A stretch of 64,000 bases of DNA from an uncultured Chlamydiae bacterium (GTDB lineage: Bacteria; Chlamydiota; Chlamydiia; Chlamydiales; SM23-39), in assembly GCA_963730605.1 (NCBI GenBank), contig CAVSSM010000001.1, positions 640,001 to 704,000 on the forward strand, read 5' to 3'. Positions 6,613 through 53,279 of this stretch are shown here, in pieces. Positions within the stretch are counted from its first letter, which is position 1. Each line of letters begins with the position of its first letter. Both the position numbers and the translations under genes were made by a program. The notes below the pieces were generated by a model. The model did no database searches, was not told the origin of the DNA, and worked only from the letters and a program-made list of their open reading frames with translations.

Positions 6613-6776
6613 TATACCGCGCCCACTCATTTTGAGTGAATTTCGTTGAGCGCCTTTTACGCCCCAGCGCATTGCTCGATCTTGCTAACATCCTAAAGTT
6701 TACGGCGATCTCCGCAACGCTACTGGAGCGCAAAATCCGCTATCAAAATTCACACAACCTAAGCGGGCGCGGTATA
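6613..6776. mobile_element. 164-bp palindromic MITE, family A, copy 1
   Basis: Ends TATACCGCGCCC / GGGCGCGGTATA; nested internal inverted arms; closely similar reverse copy at 43767-43930. Confidence 0.9.
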
Positions 6777-29917: not shown

Positions 29918-32275
29918 TTATTTTCTAATCAAATTAAGTTGCCAAGTAAATCGGTCGTCTTTGTCTGTATGGCGATAGGAAAGACGGAGTTTTAGCGAGG
30001 TGGCGATCCAGGTGAAAAGGTCGAGTTGAAATTCGTTATAGGGATCTTCGGTCGATCGGAGAAACCCGTGATGGGACTGGAAATGGCATTCCCAAAAAGG
30101 GGAGAGACGGACAAAAATGTCGGTGAGGAGGGTCAGCCTCCGGTCGGAAAGAGGCGAGGCGAGAAGGTCGCTTTCCGAACGGGTGACGTCGAGGATGAAA
30201 TTTTCATGGTCCGCTTTGCGCCAGTCGTATTGGGAACGGTAGCGCGCTTCCAGGCTAAGCGCAATATTTTCATTGATCGTCCAACGACACCGGGCGTTCA
30301 TGAAGTCGTCCACATGATTCCGGAAGTTCCATGCGTTATGGAAGGATAGATAGACGGAAGCGAGGCGCCATTCGAGCCAAAGGTAGAGGCGGGGGATGAA
30401 CTGGGGAATGGTTGGGTTGGAAAAAAATGCGTTTGCATAGAGATCGGCCGTAAACCACGGTTCAAACACTTTGCTGACTTTTGTAAAAGTAAGACTGCGG
30501 ACCCCTCCCTGGATCTGGTTGATTTGGTTGTAGCCGTCCATGATCGAAAAGATATAGTGGTCATCGGGCCTGACTGTCGGACGGGTCAGGGCCAAAAACC
30601 CGGCATAAGGTTCGATGACATGCTGATTCTGGGAGTAGGACCTAACTCCTCTTGCGGCGAGGTCGGCCCCATAGACAAGGAGGCCAAGGGCTTTTGAGTT
30701 ATGCGATGCGCTATTGGTATAGAGCGTCCCGATCCCGCCGACGTTCGGGGTGAAGGTGACAGGGCCCCAATGGAAAGGGCGATGGAGCCTTTCCCGGATT
30801 TCAATACGCCCCGAGCGGTAATCCATGGGAGGCTTGAGGGTGGGCGTCGTGGCGAGCTGGTCAGAATAGGCGAAATCGAGGTAGGAGGCCTTTAGGAAGA
30901 GGCTAGACAGGATGCCGGTCGGCCCTAAGGTCATGGGTAGCAGATTGAGATAAAAAGTCGGCAAGTCTTGTTTGATCGACTCGAATGTGTTTAACCTAGG
31001 CCGGGCTTTAAAATTGGCGATGCAAAGCGGCGCCGCATGGTAAGCCCAAAAAAGGGTCTGCTGGGCTGTGCCGATTTCGAAATCTTCGCTCCTAAAATCG
31101 CTTGGCATCCGCACATCGCTATATTTATCCCAAGTCAATGCGGTATTGGTCCTCCCATCCTGGCTGCGCCAGTGATGAGCTCCTTCTAAGCGGAAACGGA
31201 ATTGTTTATTGGGCGCTGTTTCGAGCCGGTCTGTTCCTACATAGCTCCGTGTAACGAAGATGCTTTGCCCGTCCGGAGGGAAATATTCGCTTTCGATGGC
31301 TCCTCCCCAACCGGAGCTCCAACGGTATTCCACTCTTCCGAACAGGGCAAAATCACGCCAAGAATAAAGCTGATAGCGCATCCCGGCCCGCAAACCTTGG
31401 CCTCTATCCCAGTTGAGGAAATACCGGACGATCGGATCGCGGTTGCTTTTTTTCAGGTTCAATTTAAAGGAGGGGAGCCAAAAGGTGGGGATTTTATATA
31501 GGCGAAACGCGATGTTTTTCGCGATGAAAAGATCGGAGCTCTTAGCCTCAATGCGGCTCGCATGAAGGTCCCAATCGCTGTCTTTGTTTTCCGAGGCTGT
31601 AATGGAAGCGTTTTCCACCTCATAGCTGCCGTCGGCGTTCAATTCGATCCTCTCTCCCGAGATATACCAAAGGCTGAAAAACGTTTTTCCTTTGAACACG
31701 ACTCCAGTATTTGTCAGGAAATCGTATTCCAGCCTCTCGCCGACAAACACCCGATCTTTGTACTGGATCATCAAGTCGCCGGACGCTTCGATCCGATGTA
31801 TACTGTACGCGGTTGGCTTTTTAAAATTTGGACGGGCTGCGACTTCGTCAAATCGATCTGCTCCGCGAGAAAAACGGTCCATCCGAGGACCGTTTTTCTC
31901 GATTCCGCAGTCCTCGGAAATATTGCCTTCGGATATTTCCTTCGCCCCGTCCCCAAAAACGATGCGTTGTTTGGGGGCCCCTGGGGAGGTCGGTCGGACC
32001 GCTTCACTTCGATTTTGCTTTGTCTCGCTTGCGTCCAAATTTAAAAATCCTTCCCGCGTACAGTATATCTCCTGCCGATCTTCTTTTTTGCGGGTATATT
32101 CGATCTCCCTTGCTTGGATCCGGAGGTCTTTTGCTTTCACCACCCCTCCTTCATCGGTATAGATGACGCCGTTTCGGTAGGTGGGATTCCTCAAGTCGAT
32201 GACGACTCCCGAAGCGAAACAGTATCTCGCCGAAAGGCAGGCGCCAAGGAAAAGAAGAGTGAGGAGCGTTCGCAT
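29918..32275 (-). CDS. lptD: LptD/OstA-like outer-membrane protein with an 89-aa element-derived insertion
   Basis: Signal peptide, beta-jellyroll-like N-terminus (IEASGD, GERLEYDFLTNTG), long aromatic-rich barrel-like C-terminus. Confidence 0.65.
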   Translation of the reverse strand: MRTLLTLLFLGACLSARYCFASGVVIDLRNPTYRNGVIYTDEGGVVKAKDLRIQAREIEYTRKKEDRQEIYCTREGFLNLDASETKQNRSEAVRPTSPGAPKQRIVFGDGAKEISEGNISEDCGIEKNGPRMDRFSRGADRFDEVAARPNFKKPTAYSIHRIEASGDLMIQYKDRVFVGERLEYDFLTNTGVVFKGKTFFSLWYISGERIELNADGSYEVENASITASENKDSDWDLHASRIEAKSSDLFIAKNIAFRLYKIPTFWLPSFKLNLKKSNRDPIVRYFLNWDRGQGLRAGMRYQLYSWRDFALFGRVEYRWSSGWGGAIESEYFPPDGQSIFVTRSYVGTDRLETAPNKQFRFRLEGAHHWRSQDGRTNTALTWDKYSDVRMPSDFRSEDFEIGTAQQTLFWAYHAAPLCIANFKARPRLNTFESIKQDLPTFYLNLLPMTLGPTGILSSLFLKASYLDFAYSDQLATTPTLKPPMDYRSGRIEIRERLHRPFHWGPVTFTPNVGGIGTLYTNSASHNSKALGLLVYGADLAARGVRSYSQNQHVIEPYAGFLALTRPTVRPDDHYIFSIMDGYNQINQIQGGVRSLTFTKVSKVFEPWFTADLYANAFFSNPTIPQFIPRLYLWLEWRLASVYLSFHNAWNFRNHVDDFMNARCRWTINENIALSLEARYRSQYDWRKADHENFILDVTRSESDLLASPLSDRRLTLLTDIFVRLSPFWECHFQSHHGFLRSTEDPYNEFQLDLFTWIATSLKLRLSYRHTDKDDRFTWQLNLIRK
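31799..32067. mobile_element. 269-bp palindromic element (family B) inserted in frame in the lptD-like gene
   Basis: TATACTGTACGCGG / CCGCGTACAGTATA; inner TTTTAAAATTTGGACG / CGTCCAAATTTAAAAA; 269 minus TA = 267 bp = 89 codons. Confidence 0.9.
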
Positions 32276-45882: not shown

Positions 45883-47205
45883 TTAAGAGCTTAACTCTGT
45901 TTTTTGACGAGGCTGGATCTTGATTTTCTTGATCGACCGCTCGTTCGAGGAGAGGACTTCGAGGTCGAACTCGTCATGGGAGAGGCGCCAGCCTTTGGAG
46001 GGAATCGTCCCAGCGCAGTGGTAGACGTAGCCCCCGATCGTCTCATATTCGGGATTGGGAGGGATCTTGAGGCCGAGGCGCTCCTCGATGTCGTGGATCG
46101 TCATCTTGGCGTCGACGATCCAGCCGCCGCCCGGCACTTCCCAAAATTCGTGTTCTTCTCCGACATCGTACTCGTCTTCGATCTCTCCGACAAGCTCTTC
46201 CAAAATGTCTTCGATCGTCACGATCCCTTCCGTCCCGCCGTATTCATCGACGATGATCGCCATGTGGATCTGCTTATTGCGGAACTCCTGGAGGAGCTGG
46301 GTGATCTTCTTATTTTCGGGGGCGTACAAGACAGGTTTGGCGATGGTCTGGAGCGGTTCTTTGAGATCCTGGTTGGGGTTGACGTAGCATTTAAGCAGGT
46401 CTTTATAGAGAACGACGCCCAAGATCTGATCGAGAGACTCGCGGTAGATGGGGATGCGGCTATACCCTTCCGCCGCAAAGAGCGGGGCCGCTTCCTGGAT
46501 CGTCGTATCGGCCGCGAGGGCATAGACATCGACGCGGGGGACCATGATCTCTTTCCCTACCCTTTCTTTGAAATTGATGAAGGAAGCGATCAGCCTTTGG
46601 TCAGTCGGGGCCAGGTGTTGTTGGAGATCCGATTCACTGATCATTTCGCGCAATTTCGCTTTGTCGGTGAGAAGGTCTTCTCCCTCAAGAGGGGCTTTCT
46701 TGAAGAGCGTCTGGTGTAATTGCAAAAGGAGCCCGACCAAAGGAAAAAGGAGTGTGAGGTAGATCGAGGCGAAGGGAGCTGCGAATTTCAACATGGGACG
46801 GATCCAAGCATTGGCCATCGTCCGGGCCAAGAAGTCCGCAAGTAGCGACACGGCGATGATGATTGCTCCGATCGCGAGCAGTGGGACCCAATCTCTTAAG
46901 CCAGAGATTTGGGAGATCATCGCCTTAAAATAGGAAATGCGTTCCACCAGAAAGAAAAAGGCGCACGTTGCATAAGCCAGTTGGAAGATGTGATTGGTCA
47001 ATGATATCGCAAAATAGAGATTCTCCCATTCGTTTTTTGGGAAAATCGATTTGAGGATCGAGCGGAAAAAGAAAAAGGGACGGCGCGGGGCGCGGAAGAT
47101 TTCCTTGGCCTTGAACTTGCCAAGGCGAATCAACGCAGAGGTGCAAATCGTCAAACATACAGTTCCAAACAAAAAAAACAGGGCAAGAATGAGGAGTTCG
47201 CTCAT
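45883..47205 (-). CDS. Hemolysin/CorC family protein (CNNM TM + CBS pair + CorC_HlyC)
   Basis: KEIMVPRVD, GYSRIPIY, MAIIVDEYGGTEGIVTIEDILEELVGEIEDEYD, YETIGG. Confidence 0.92.
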   Translation of the reverse strand: MSELLILALFFLFGTVCLTICTSALIRLGKFKAKEIFRAPRRPFFFFRSILKSIFPKNEWENLYFAISLTNHIFQLAYATCAFFFLVERISYFKAMISQISGLRDWVPLLAIGAIIIAVSLLADFLARTMANAWIRPMLKFAAPFASIYLTLLFPLVGLLLQLHQTLFKKAPLEGEDLLTDKAKLREMISESDLQQHLAPTDQRLIASFINFKERVGKEIMVPRVDVYALAADTTIQEAAPLFAAEGYSRIPIYRESLDQILGVVLYKDLLKCYVNPNQDLKEPLQTIAKPVLYAPENKKITQLLQEFRNKQIHMAIIVDEYGGTEGIVTIEDILEELVGEIEDEYDVGEEHEFWEVPGGGWIVDAKMTIHDIEERLGLKIPPNPEYETIGGYVYHCAGTIPSKGWRLSHDEFDLEVLSSNERSIKKIKIQPRQKTELSS

Positions 47206-47786
47206 GGAGTGATTTTTAATTTAAGCTGTTTGAGATGATCCATACACTTTTTCTCCATTTTGCGCATCGATCGTTTCGCATTGGGCTCAATATCATCGTA
47301 GCCAATCAGGTGGAGGATGCCATGGATGAGATAGAGAAGAGTCTCTTCATAGGGGCGGGCGGGATCGAAGCGTTGCGCCGCAAGAGGGCAGATAAAAATA
47401 TCCCCCAAATATACCGCGCGCGTCCAGTCTTGACAGGTTCTGACCGGCTGCGACTTTGCAGAATCGATCCTCGTCGTCGCCCTTCCCAATTCGGGAATGG
47501 TGCTCCTCCTGCGAATCAATTCTGCTTTGTCTCGCGCGGTCATAACATGCCAATCCTGACCGCGCGCAGTATGTACCGCGTCGACTGGAAAGGAGATGCA
47601 ATCGGTCAGGCTTGGGTCGTTAAAGAATTCAACATGTAGCTGGCAGATTTTTTTCTCAGAGACAAAATAAACAGAGATTTCTTCGCACTGAATGCGAAGA
47701 AATGAACACAACCCCCCTAATACTCTTCGAACGGAGCTTTTAGAAATGGGGAGAGCCTTTTGTCGATTGTATATATTGAAGTTCAC
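47202..47786 (-). CDS. ybeY: rRNA maturation endoribonuclease YbeY with a 54-aa element-derived insertion
   Basis: TDCISFP...LGDIFIC and HGILHLIGYDD motifs, separated by an extra 54 aa. Confidence 0.92.
   Translation of the reverse strand: MNFNIYNRQKALPISKSSVRRVLGGLCSFLRIQCEEISVYFVSEKKICQLHVEFFNDPSLTDCISFPVDAVHTARGQDWHVMTARDKAELIRRRSTIPELGRATTRIDSAKSQPVRTCQDWTRAVYLGDIFICPLAAQRFDPARPYEETLLYLIHGILHLIGYDDIEPNAKRSMRKMEKKCMDHLKQLKLKITP
47410..47573. mobile_element. 164-bp palindromic element (family B) inserted in frame in ybeY
   Basis: TATACCGCGCG / CGCGCAGTATG ends; 164 minus 2 = 162 bp = 54 codons; core shared with the lptD and mpg elements. Confidence 0.88.
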
Positions 47787-50691: not shown

Positions 50692-52833
50692 GTAACCGCG
50701 ATCTTTCTTTTGGGCTGGGCGGGTGGGGGGAGGGGGGATAATGGACCATTCTGTTTGTTGGAGGGTATAGTCGATGCGATCCAAACGGACGAATATGGTT
50801 TGGCCGACCGCGTAGCTTCTTCCGGACCTCGAGCCGCGGAGCGTCATCGCTTGAGGATTGAATTCGAAATAGTCGTTGCCGATTTGAGAGATGTGCAAGG
50901 AGGCTTCGAGATCGAAAAAGGAAACTTCGAAAAAGAGGGCAAACGGTTTGATGCGGGTGACTGTTGCCTGATAGGGGCGCGTCAAGTCTTCGGCGAAATA
51001 AGTTCCGGCAAGCCGGAGTTTTTTCAAAAGCTTGACCGAGCTTTCGGCCCTAAAGGAGACTCTCTCCTTTTCTGAGCATTTTAAGGCGATGGCGTCCAAA
51101 TCGGCATCGTCTGGCAGTTCATCGCAAAGAAGCCGCTGGATGATCAGGTCGGTGTAGCGCCGGATGGGGCTCGTGAAATGGCAGTAATGCTCGAGCGCCA
51201 AACCGTAATGGCCGATATTTTCTGGCGAATAGGCGGCAAGCCTCATGCTCCGGATGAAGCTGATCGAGAGTTGGGAGAGCAGGGGTGAGTCCTTCGCATC
51301 TTGGAAGAGTTTTTGGATGTCGCGGTGAGTGGGATCGGCAGGAAGCTTAAACCCTAGAGTTCTCGCAAATGCGTAAAAGTCTTTAAACGATTCGGCAGAC
51401 GGCTCTTCATGGACCCGGTAGATAAGAGTTTTGCCTTGGCGCTGGAGATGGGATGCCGCAATCTCATTGGCCTTGAGCATGAACTCTTCAATCATCTGAT
51501 GGGTGATATCGTATTCGATCCTCTCGATCCGAAGAGGGATGCCATCTTTGTCGACAATTAGGACGTTATCAGGCATGGAAAAATCGATGCTGCCGCGCTC
51601 GAACCTTTTCCGCTTCAAAATATGGCAGAGCTCCACCATCAGCTCCAGCAGGCTGGAATGGGGCGATTTTTCCTTTTTCTCGAGGACGGCCATGGCTTCT
51701 TTGTAAGTGAAACGCTTGCGGCTTTTGATCACGGTGCGTCGGATCTCATAGCGGATCATATTGCCGTCCCCATCGAACTCGGCGAGAACCGATTGGGCGA
51801 GCCTCTTCACATTGGCTTTCAGGCTGCAGAGCTCGTTGGAGAGCTCTTCGGGCAGCATCGGGACGCACTGACCGGGAAAATAGGTCGAATTGCATCTCTC
51901 AAAGCTTTCCGTATCGAGGTGGCTTCCCGGAAGAACGTAGTGGGCGACATCGGCGATATGGACGCCGAGATGATAATGTCCCTCGCTATCTCGGGTAAGC
52001 GATATGGCGTCGTCGTAATCGCGGGCTGTATCGGGATCGATCGTAACGCATTCGAATCCGGTCAGATCGAGCCGGTTTTTACACTCTTTGACCGAAACCT
52101 TGGCCCCGTAGGCTCTTGCCTCCTCGATCGCTTCCACGGAAAAGCCGTCCGGCAGATCGAACTCGGCAATGGCCGCTTCGGTGTCGATCGAAGGATCGGA
52201 GATGTTGCCGATCATGCGGGTCAGCGTTGCCTCCACAAGGTCCGATTCACCGCCCCAAGAAACGATCTTACAAATGACCCGGTCTCCCTCTTCCAACGTT
52301 ATCCCTTTGCTGGCCTTAAGCAAAATAAGTTTATCTGATCCCAATAAAGGAGAAAACGCCTTGTAGCCCCGCCCCGATTTGCCTACGACCGTTCCCGCCA
52401 AAGAGGTGCGGCTCCTTTTCAAGATGGCGATGACGGTCCCTTCGGGCCCTTTTACGGTGACAATGGGTTCGATTTCGATTTCGACCTCGTCCCCGTCGAC
52501 CGCATCGTTCAACCTCTGTTTCGGGATAAAGACATCGGGACCCGCGGCGTTCTTGACGAAGCCGAACCCTTTCGGATGGACGCTGATCGTCCCGGTCACC
52601 AAGGCCGCTCCGTTCGGCGCCGTATATTTATTGTTTTGGAGCACGAGGGCTTTGTCCTCGATCAATTGTCCCAAAACGACCTTCAATCGGTCTCGATGGA
52701 TGGGAGCGACTGCAAGCTGTTCGACGAGTTCTTCGTAAGTGGCCGGTTTGTAGCGTCTTCCTTGGATGAACTGGAGGATGGTCTTTGCGAGGTTTTGGGA
52801 GAGCTTCTCCCCCTTCTTTCTTCTGGATTTCAT
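50689..52833 (-). CDS. rnr: Ribonuclease R
   Basis: Cold-shock domains (HPKGFGFV), TIDPDTARDYDDA, HFTSPIRRYTDL, C-terminal S1 domain. Confidence 0.95.
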   Translation of the reverse strand: MKSRRKKGEKLSQNLAKTILQFIQGRRYKPATYEELVEQLAVAPIHRDRLKVVLGQLIEDKALVLQNNKYTAPNGAALVTGTISVHPKGFGFVKNAAGPDVFIPKQRLNDAVDGDEVEIEIEPIVTVKGPEGTVIAILKRSRTSLAGTVVGKSGRGYKAFSPLLGSDKLILLKASKGITLEEGDRVICKIVSWGGESDLVEATLTRMIGNISDPSIDTEAAIAEFDLPDGFSVEAIEEARAYGAKVSVKECKNRLDLTGFECVTIDPDTARDYDDAISLTRDSEGHYHLGVHIADVAHYVLPGSHLDTESFERCNSTYFPGQCVPMLPEELSNELCSLKANVKRLAQSVLAEFDGDGNMIRYEIRRTVIKSRKRFTYKEAMAVLEKKEKSPHSSLLELMVELCHILKRKRFERGSIDFSMPDNVLIVDKDGIPLRIERIEYDITHQMIEEFMLKANEIAASHLQRQGKTLIYRVHEEPSAESFKDFYAFARTLGFKLPADPTHRDIQKLFQDAKDSPLLSQLSISFIRSMRLAAYSPENIGHYGLALEHYCHFTSPIRRYTDLIIQRLLCDELPDDADLDAIALKCSEKERVSFRAESSVKLLKKLRLAGTYFAEDLTRPYQATVTRIKPFALFFEVSFFDLEASLHISQIGNDYFEFNPQAMTLRGSRSGRSYAVGQTIFVRLDRIDYTLQQTEWSIIPPPPTRPAQKKDRGY

Positions 52834-52836
52834 TAT

Positions 52837-52999
52837 TAACCCGCTGTGCAAATATGAGACATTTCTTCAGGACGTAGATTGTCCATCTCTGCGTTGCCCT
52901 GCTTCGACAACCCACTTCGGGGTTGCCTGCATCGGGCGCCTTGATCTGAACAATCTCCGTTTACCTGCATAAATTGTCTCCTATTTGCGTAGCGGGTTA
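52837..52999. mobile_element. 163-bp TA-bounded MITE directly upstream of rnr
   Basis: TAACCCGCTGTGCAAATATGAGACA ... TGTCTCCTATTTGCGTAGCGGGTTA (22/25 match). Confidence 0.88.
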
Positions 53000-53162
53000 T
53001 ACGGCACCCGGTCAGCTTTGGTGAATTTTGGTGAGCATCTTTTGCGCCCCAGCGCATTGCTCGCACTCGCAAACTTTTTAAGTTTCCTTCGTGTCTCCGC
53101 AACGCTACTGGGACTCAAAATCTGCTGCCAAAATTCACCAAATCTAAATCGCGCACCGTATA
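52998..53162. mobile_element. 165-bp palindromic MITE, family A, diverged copy 3
   Basis: TATACGG / CCGTATA ends; shares CGCCCCAGCGCATTGCTCG and CTCCGCAACGCTACTGG with copy 1; shares its left TA with the previous element. Confidence 0.85.
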
Positions 53163-53279
53163 GTAGCATCGATCATAGGGAAAGGAGGGAATCTGAGCAA
53201 GGGAAGAAATTCCACGACAAATTCCCTGAGTCTCATGAGTAATTGAAATTTAAATTATGCCACTTTGTTGGCAAACACA

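Follow-up and report, generated by a model that had tools for sequence, protein, structure and literature searches.

How can a conserved protein gene take up 54 additional codons and stay open? This question is raised by ybeY in a 64,000-nucleotide stretch of DNA from an uncultured Chlamydiae bacterium, the whole of which is called the window below. The explanation that we consider fairly probable is that a TA-targeting miniature transposon, likely moved by an IS630 transposase, inserted into a Tyr codon of ybeY and likely appears in the protein, which is otherwise intact, as a disordered surface loop of 54 residues. Palindromic elements that lie in frame within genes are a peculiarity familiar from Rickettsia, and both their mobiliser and their effect on fitness have been poorly tested. 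The lineage studied here offers a candidate transposase with matching ends, close relatives whose alleles are either filled or empty, one codon taken by two unrelated elements and a frame apparently opened by selection. This makes it testable, on a small protein and by standard complementation, whether such an insert is a neutral loop or a functional change. If a link to RNase R (see below) were true, mobile DNA would be tied to ribosome quality control.

The insertion in ybeY

The ybeY gene occupies 47202..47786 on the minus strand and encodes 194 aa including the 54-aa insert. Its product was recognized by the Pfam YbeY profile (81.7 bits), by TIGR00043 over its cut-off and by a structure model with its fold match. 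Homologues and related records are labelled Chlamydiales or Chlamydiota. The loop between the motifs TDCISFP and LGDIFIC comprises 59 residues here versus 5 in all four empty orthologues of the same genus (G003-G006) and in 107 of the 117 parsed homologues (120 listed). This means, 54 aa are extra. An earlier sequence-only reading had correctly located an additional in-frame segment between these motifs, with its coordinates, its first ten bases and its length of 164 bp, and had rightly assumed that the motifs are normally parted by a short loop.

The segment (47410-47573) starts with TATACCGCGC and is as long as the stretch 6613-6776. On the coding strand it reads CA/TAC...GTA/TA, i.e. an element of 160 bp (47412..47571, minus strand) plus one duplicated TA. 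The proposed equation of a 164-bp element with 54 aa has to be adjusted: 164 bp is the length with both TA copies, whereas the element proper is 160 bp long and the gene has gained a net 162 bp, which corresponds to 54 codons. The duplicated TA stems from a Tyr codon in the loop, whose empty form reads VDASY-LGD in G003 and L090. One copy (47410..47411) provides, on the coding strand, bases 1 and 2 of the regenerated Tyr codon. The second copy (47572..47573) now reads CA on this strand, which turns Tyr into His. The site is empty in G003-G006 and in L090-L093.

The element folds into one long hairpin (-92.7 kcal/mol, z -10.3, none of 200 shuffles as good) with a terminal stem of 12 bp. Its terminal inverted repeat arms are located at 47411..47422 and 47561..47572 (both plus strand), the latter being imperfect. 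The far end had been read as the inverted counterpart of the beginning; the inverse is present, but it carries 2 mismatches in 10 and CA instead of the second TA. A small hairpin mobile element lies in frame inside ybeY, and the insert is likely translated as a floppy 54-residue loop.

A multi-copy element family and a candidate IS630 mobiliser

A scan of the genome for paired hairpin ends yielded 101 loci compared to 1 in the shuffled genome. Among them are 85 elements with TATAC-type (TATAC...GTATA) ends that fall into many subfamilies; 26 are 164 bp long, and TA is found at 146 of the 170 ends. With blastn, 124 further partial or related loci were detected. One 164-bp MITE is intergenic (6613..6776, no strand assigned) and had been noted to share its first ten bases and its length with the segment in ybeY. 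The likeness in sequence is confined to the ends: blastn links the interior of the ybeY element to other loci, and the 6613 copy belongs to another subfamily with an unrelated interior. The subfamily of the ybeY element is shared with G105 (83-85% identity; 8 matches listed, 5 of them near full length) and G007 (89%), so that copies in both are 83-89% identical to the ybeY copy. A length of 164 bp is the commonest one in several subfamilies with unrelated interiors, both in this genome and in G002.

The genome contains 29 DDE_3 matches. An IS630 transposase of 352 aa (NF033545, 218 bits) is present in 14 equal-scoring copies, and the 13 copies examined end with TA/TACCGCTCGTGATT...GGGTA/TA. 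The IS630 end is identical over 16 bases to the start of one MITE subfamily and over 8 bases to the ybeY copy; TATACCGC from 47410 is the same as the left end of the 14-copy IS630 element. Other IS630 groups are also found in this genome, and pieces of IS630 transposases in G002 and G105. By analogy with the proposal for RUP in the available text of PMC2229807, the IS630 element is the likely mobiliser of the MITEs. The view that a mobile element landed in a tolerant loop, already put forward from the sequence, is supported by orthologous sites that are empty, by the duplicated TA, by the many copies of the family and by the IS630 partner.

Other origins were considered. For a RAYT/IS200-type mobiliser, there is a single, weak Y1_Tnp match, which lies within a degraded region that we take to be IS605-like. 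Rfam matches to the element are at chance level only, which does not argue for a known RNA family. The insert peptide has no match in NCBIfam at E values up to 10, a library that presumably contains models of the Rickettsia palindromic elements (RPEs). A length bias toward frame-keeping is not claimed, since 54 of the 85 copies but merely 18 of the 40 distinct lengths would keep the frame.

In-frame copies were also found in the genes for RecD2, PDH E1, a secretin, a hypothetical protein and one protein each of the CT351 and BacA families; for every one of these genes, an orthologue without the insert is present in G002 or G017. Further copies were found in FolC and the E2 acyltransferase. The element in the CT351-family outer-membrane protein gene is a 269-bp in-frame member of the same superfamily (31799..32067, minus strand; empty in G002). 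One insertion is common to this genome and G003 at the same place; it measures 236 bp here and 164 bp there and is in frame in both.

Several minor observations concern related or other insertions. In G002 (L213 13335-13660), two 164-bp elements are arranged in tandem with one TA between them, and a long ORF reads into the first. In this genome, a decayed copy of the same superfamily is fused to the C-terminus of KdsB (C1:727328-727485) and has a near-duplicate 14 kb away (C1:713609-713768). Short in-frame tandem repeats at C5:65877-66231 and C1:317547-318081 are related to an internal MITE module. A DnaB-like gene on contig C10 carries a 431-residue insertion that starts with Cys, ends with His-Asn, is absent in G002 and G017 and is, as we presume, intein-like. 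A protein of G038 shows a longer stretch as well.

Fold and catalytic residues of the interrupted YbeY

In a structure model based on a 113-sequence alignment, 135 of the 194 residues have a pLDDT of at least 90, and the best structural fold matches are YbeY structures. The insert is placed between the strands 63-67 and 124-132 with pLDDT values of mostly 44-54; AlphaFold scores low wherever alignment columns lack depth, and the attribute 'disordered' is therefore weakly tested by these values. A fold from the single sequence was uninformative (pLDDT 38.6). The model supports the notion that the YbeY fold is kept and that the insert is a low-confidence loop between two strands, as the suggested structure prediction was meant to clarify.

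The insert ends three residues before Asp129 (47400..47402, minus strand). According to an alignment of an empty orthologue with 1xm5, this residue corresponds to E. coli YbeY D85, which is described in the accessible part of PMC5101352 as a residue of the S11 interface. The metal-site motif HGILHLIGYDD is encoded at 47292..47324 (minus strand). It had been called intact. HGILH is indeed present; the position of the third His in the H3XH5XH triad, however, is taken by Asp in this protein as across the lineage (107 of 108 parsed homologues), leaving two-thirds of the canonical triad. In the same alignment, E. coli R59 and K61 face Phe and Asp in these chlamydial YbeYs. H114, H118, H124, R59 and K61 are required for YbeY RNase activity, as far as the available text of PMC5101352 goes. 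The loss of R59, K61 and the third His is a trait of the lineage that is not due to the insert, and chlamydial YbeYs devoid of equivalents of H124, R59 and K61 may be catalytically altered. Compared to canonical YbeYs (E. coli 1xm5, A. aeolicus 1oz9, S. aureus 7y7o), the protein shares profile, fold, the first two His and the D85 equivalent, but differs in the 54-aa loop insert and, like its chlamydial relatives, in the incomplete H3XH5XH plus R59/K61 set.

The residue before the TDC motif (residue 60, 47607-47609) is Leu in both insert-bearing proteins of the genus. Among 120 homologues, it is Leu in 5 and Pro in 98.

Recurrent insertions in ybeY of relatives

Among 103 genomes of the family, 94 have a YbeY match, and this match is split by an insert in three: this genome, G002 and G017. 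G002, a member of the same genus, carries a 167-bp TATAC...GTATA hairpin at the identical Tyr TA and has many such copies. Its element is unrelated to the one in the window: The best blastn match between both has an E value of 0.49, a global alignment gave a weak excess (5 of 200 shuffles), and the G002 element has no match in this genome at E 1e-3. In the tree, this genome falls into a 100/99 clade with four empty-site rows, and the AU test rejects a clade of this genome with G002 (p 0.0075; 23 rows, loop columns left out). In view of the unrelated DNA and the tree test, a single ancestral insertion is rejected. In G017, a 308-bp element is located at a different Tyr. In the YbeY protein P0122, helix 1 is followed by a peptide typical of one 164-bp subfamily, and in the chlamydial YbeYs P0139, P0148 and P0150, the loop that is filled here is, at the protein level, longer by 40-60 residues. 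A MITE-like peptide in the N-terminal extension of P0129 is probably due to an element just upstream of the true start.

A baseline for in-frame hairpin inserts was determined in 1.50 of ~2.0 Mb of G017 and 0.75 of ~1.8 Mb of G002, with the ybeY and rnr contigs included by choice. Apart from ybeY, 4 inserts were counted in 933 genes with 239,815 aligned residues, and 2 inserts in 672 genes with 171,249, which does not support the idea that the two genomes are broadly gene-invaded. At rates of 1.2-3.3 x 10^-5 per codon, two further ybeY insertions have a P of 0.001-0.07, a value that varies with the rate and the number of element-bearing genomes. The neighbouring 440-aa CNNM gene has no insert split among the matches listed (101 of 103 genomes matched, 46 weak rows outside the listing, read by eye). 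Judged against this baseline and in view of the small numbers, ybeY has probably been struck above average, and it looks like a recurrent landing place for hairpin elements. A literature search, with most subscription papers and supplements outside its scope, found no report of MITEs lying in frame within chlamydial genes or of repeated insertion into ybeY.

Insertions in rnr and a possible link to RNase R

The rnr gene, encoding RNase R, was picked as a control before inspection. It is matched in 102 of the 103 family genomes. Read by eye, two of these matches, those in G002 and G017, are interrupted by an in-frame insert; the remaining splits are due to contig ends, to one frameshift and to a gap of 42 bp in two frames. 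The inserts in G002 and G017 fold into hairpins (z about -16 and -15, respectively) and belong to other families. In the window, a composite insert of ~330 bp that is absent in G003 is located at the rnr start codon (52835..53166, minus strand). It consists of an outer hairpin element with a nested TATAC MITE (52998-53162) and creates two upstream ORFs of 62 and 44 aa. The second ORF ends two bases before the ATG at 52833, which suggests translational coupling.

These data allow an alternative to which we assign a small but appreciable probability: An insert that weakens YbeY would lead to unfinished 16S 3' ends that are destroyed by RNase R. Weak ybeY alleles might, with the same modest likelihood, persist mainly where an insertion dampens RNase R, so that elements accumulate in both genes. 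The pattern would fit, as exactly the only other ybeY-insert genomes, G002 and G017, have rnr inserts. At the background rates tried, P for both being struck is 0.7-5.5 x 10^-4. To this adds the insert at the rnr start in the window. G017 carries a further hairpin with TATAC ends, which interrupts the N-terminal part of RsgA in frame (L233 16035-16240). In B. subtilis, deletion of rnr suppresses the essentiality of the YbeY homologue, as stated in the available portion of PMC6144821. It is conceivable, if rather unlikely, that ybeY is a preferred sink for hairpin elements coupled to the invasion of RNase R, a natural counterpart of this suppressor pair that retunes ribosome quality control. 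The case comprises three genomes only, and a loss of activity by the inserts is a supposition. Furthermore, rnr and ybeY are 3-5 kb apart in this genome and G017, which makes a regional effect possible, although the CNNM neighbour is unsplit among the matches listed. Inserts near gene starts are common in this genome. Not all RNases were struck: PNPase and RNase III are insert-free in G002 and G017. Family-wide, 2 struck rnr genes in ~100 genomes are in line with the 0.9-2.4 expected from the background. The insertion of a miniature transposon into a tolerant loop is still preferred, although a pure sieve does not predict the shared rnr insertions.

Reading frame of the insert

Four sister copies from G105 and G007 were examined. 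In the frame imposed by ybeY, they have 2-3 stops, and they are mostly open in another frame. Codon 50 is TGA in each of them and codon 8 in three, whereas the ybeY copy has TGG at both positions (47424..47426 and 47550..47552, respectively, minus strand). Within bases 1-152, seven changes are private to the ybeY copy; two of them are exactly those that remove the stops. Random placement of seven changes opens the frame in 1.0% of 200,000 trials. This points to selection for a full-length protein, as suggested by the comparison with the sisters, though one G105 copy has TGG at codon 8 already and one of the two 'repairs' may hence be inherited. Against L090, a near-identical match of G003, the ybeY core has a dN of 0.061 and a dS of 0.395 (dN/dS ~0.15) and the part after the insert a dN of 0.039 and a dS of 0.372, values that cover the entire branch including the time before insertion. 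The low ratio and the change of two stops to Trp lend indirect support to a translation of the insert.

The removal of the stops in exactly the ybeY frame and the low dN/dS speak against a dead or dying gene with a frame that is open by chance, and a second full ybeY match is not present in the genome. The constraint on these chlamydial YbeYs may be unusual, as they have no equivalents of R59, K61 and H124. The hairpin might also be removed from the RNA, since long MITE hairpins elsewhere are substrates of RNase III or RNase E according to the accessible text of PMC10969869; plain excision of a hairpin would need a splicing machinery, and none was seen. Gene decay or hairpin removal is therefore improbable in our eyes.

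Choice of the insertion site

Slightly less credible still is a sequence-directed targeting, in which a flank resembling the element end picks the site. The insertion site shows an imperfect direct repeat of 9 bp (47410-47418 and 47572-47580, 162 bp apart), which represents the sole 7-of-7 extension beyond TA among the 85 copies, and the G002 element sits at the same codon. The repeat may, however, be the remnant of a deleted tandem copy. The G002 flank has no mimic of an element end, the flanks of the 85 family copies display a mild A/T lean only, and the empty gene offers 20-21 TA sites, with insertions known at three different sites.

A repeat collapsed into ybeY during assembly is hardly believable: Contigs of two runs (X1, X2) span the 47573 junction with 0 differences, and the copy is a singleton (next best 82% over 98 nt) with private frame-opening changes, but two other runs (X3, X4) enter the element at the 47410 junction by 5-6 nt only, too short for bridging, so that the proposed read check succeeded for one junction, with contigs of four runs all from one study that may be the source sample itself.

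Proposed course of events

According to the miniature-transposon explanation, a non-autonomous element would have been moved in trans by an IS630-family transposase that, as we infer, cut at TA with little further preference. The landing site would be a Tyr codon in the variable beta-hairpin loop of YbeY. With the two UGA stops of the subfamily in the ybeY frame, only a stop-free allele would keep the downstream metal-site helix. Either the donor was already stop-free or repair took place later, perhaps following a phase in which UGA was read through. A needed gene with a few length-tolerant loops would act as a sieve that retains frame-preserving insertions, which might explain why ybeY was struck repeatedly. 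The insertion would have put a 160-nt hairpin into the mRNA and an end of the insert three residues before the S11-contact Asp. Most likely, the insert is neutral to mildly harmful.

Comparison with known elements

The element has the features of a TA-targeting bacterial MITE of the RUP/ERIC class: It is short, lacks a transposase, has inverted repeats and a TA duplication with an empty site and belongs to a family dispersed in many copies. ERIC elements have TATAC...GTATA ends. ERIC/IRU is described in the available text of PMC2229807 as a single enterobacterial family of 127 bp with TA termini, a long stem-loop, some in-frame fusions and effects on mRNA stability. By this description, the chlamydial elements resemble ERIC in termini, stem-loop and in-frame fusions, but they form many subfamilies instead of one.

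RPEs are hairpins of ~150 bp that interrupt, in frame, conserved housekeeping genes in a bacterium living inside cells, and an RPE-bearing Gmk is translated and active (accessible parts of PMC2229807 and PMC10969869). The ybeY element, also an in-frame hairpin in a conserved protein gene, works like a Rickettsia RPE but is not one. It has no NCBIfam sequence link to RPEs at the peptide level, and its host is chlamydial, not rickettsial. Its relatives comprise many subfamilies with TATAC ends, and a candidate transposase with matching ends resides in the same genome. The frame read in the ybeY copy is a closed one in the sister copies, and one codon is occupied by independent elements. Of particular note are the independent double insertion, the apparently opened frame and the possible rnr link.

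RUP from S. pneumoniae, as portrayed in the available text of PMC2229807, is 107 bp long, lies between genes or within IS genes and has no open frame among the six. Its TA target duplication and its ends in common with a resident IS630 element (IS630-Spn1) are matched by the chlamydial elements, the ends over 16 bases in one subfamily and over 8 in the ybeY copy. The chlamydial elements differ in having open frames and in residing in housekeeping genes.
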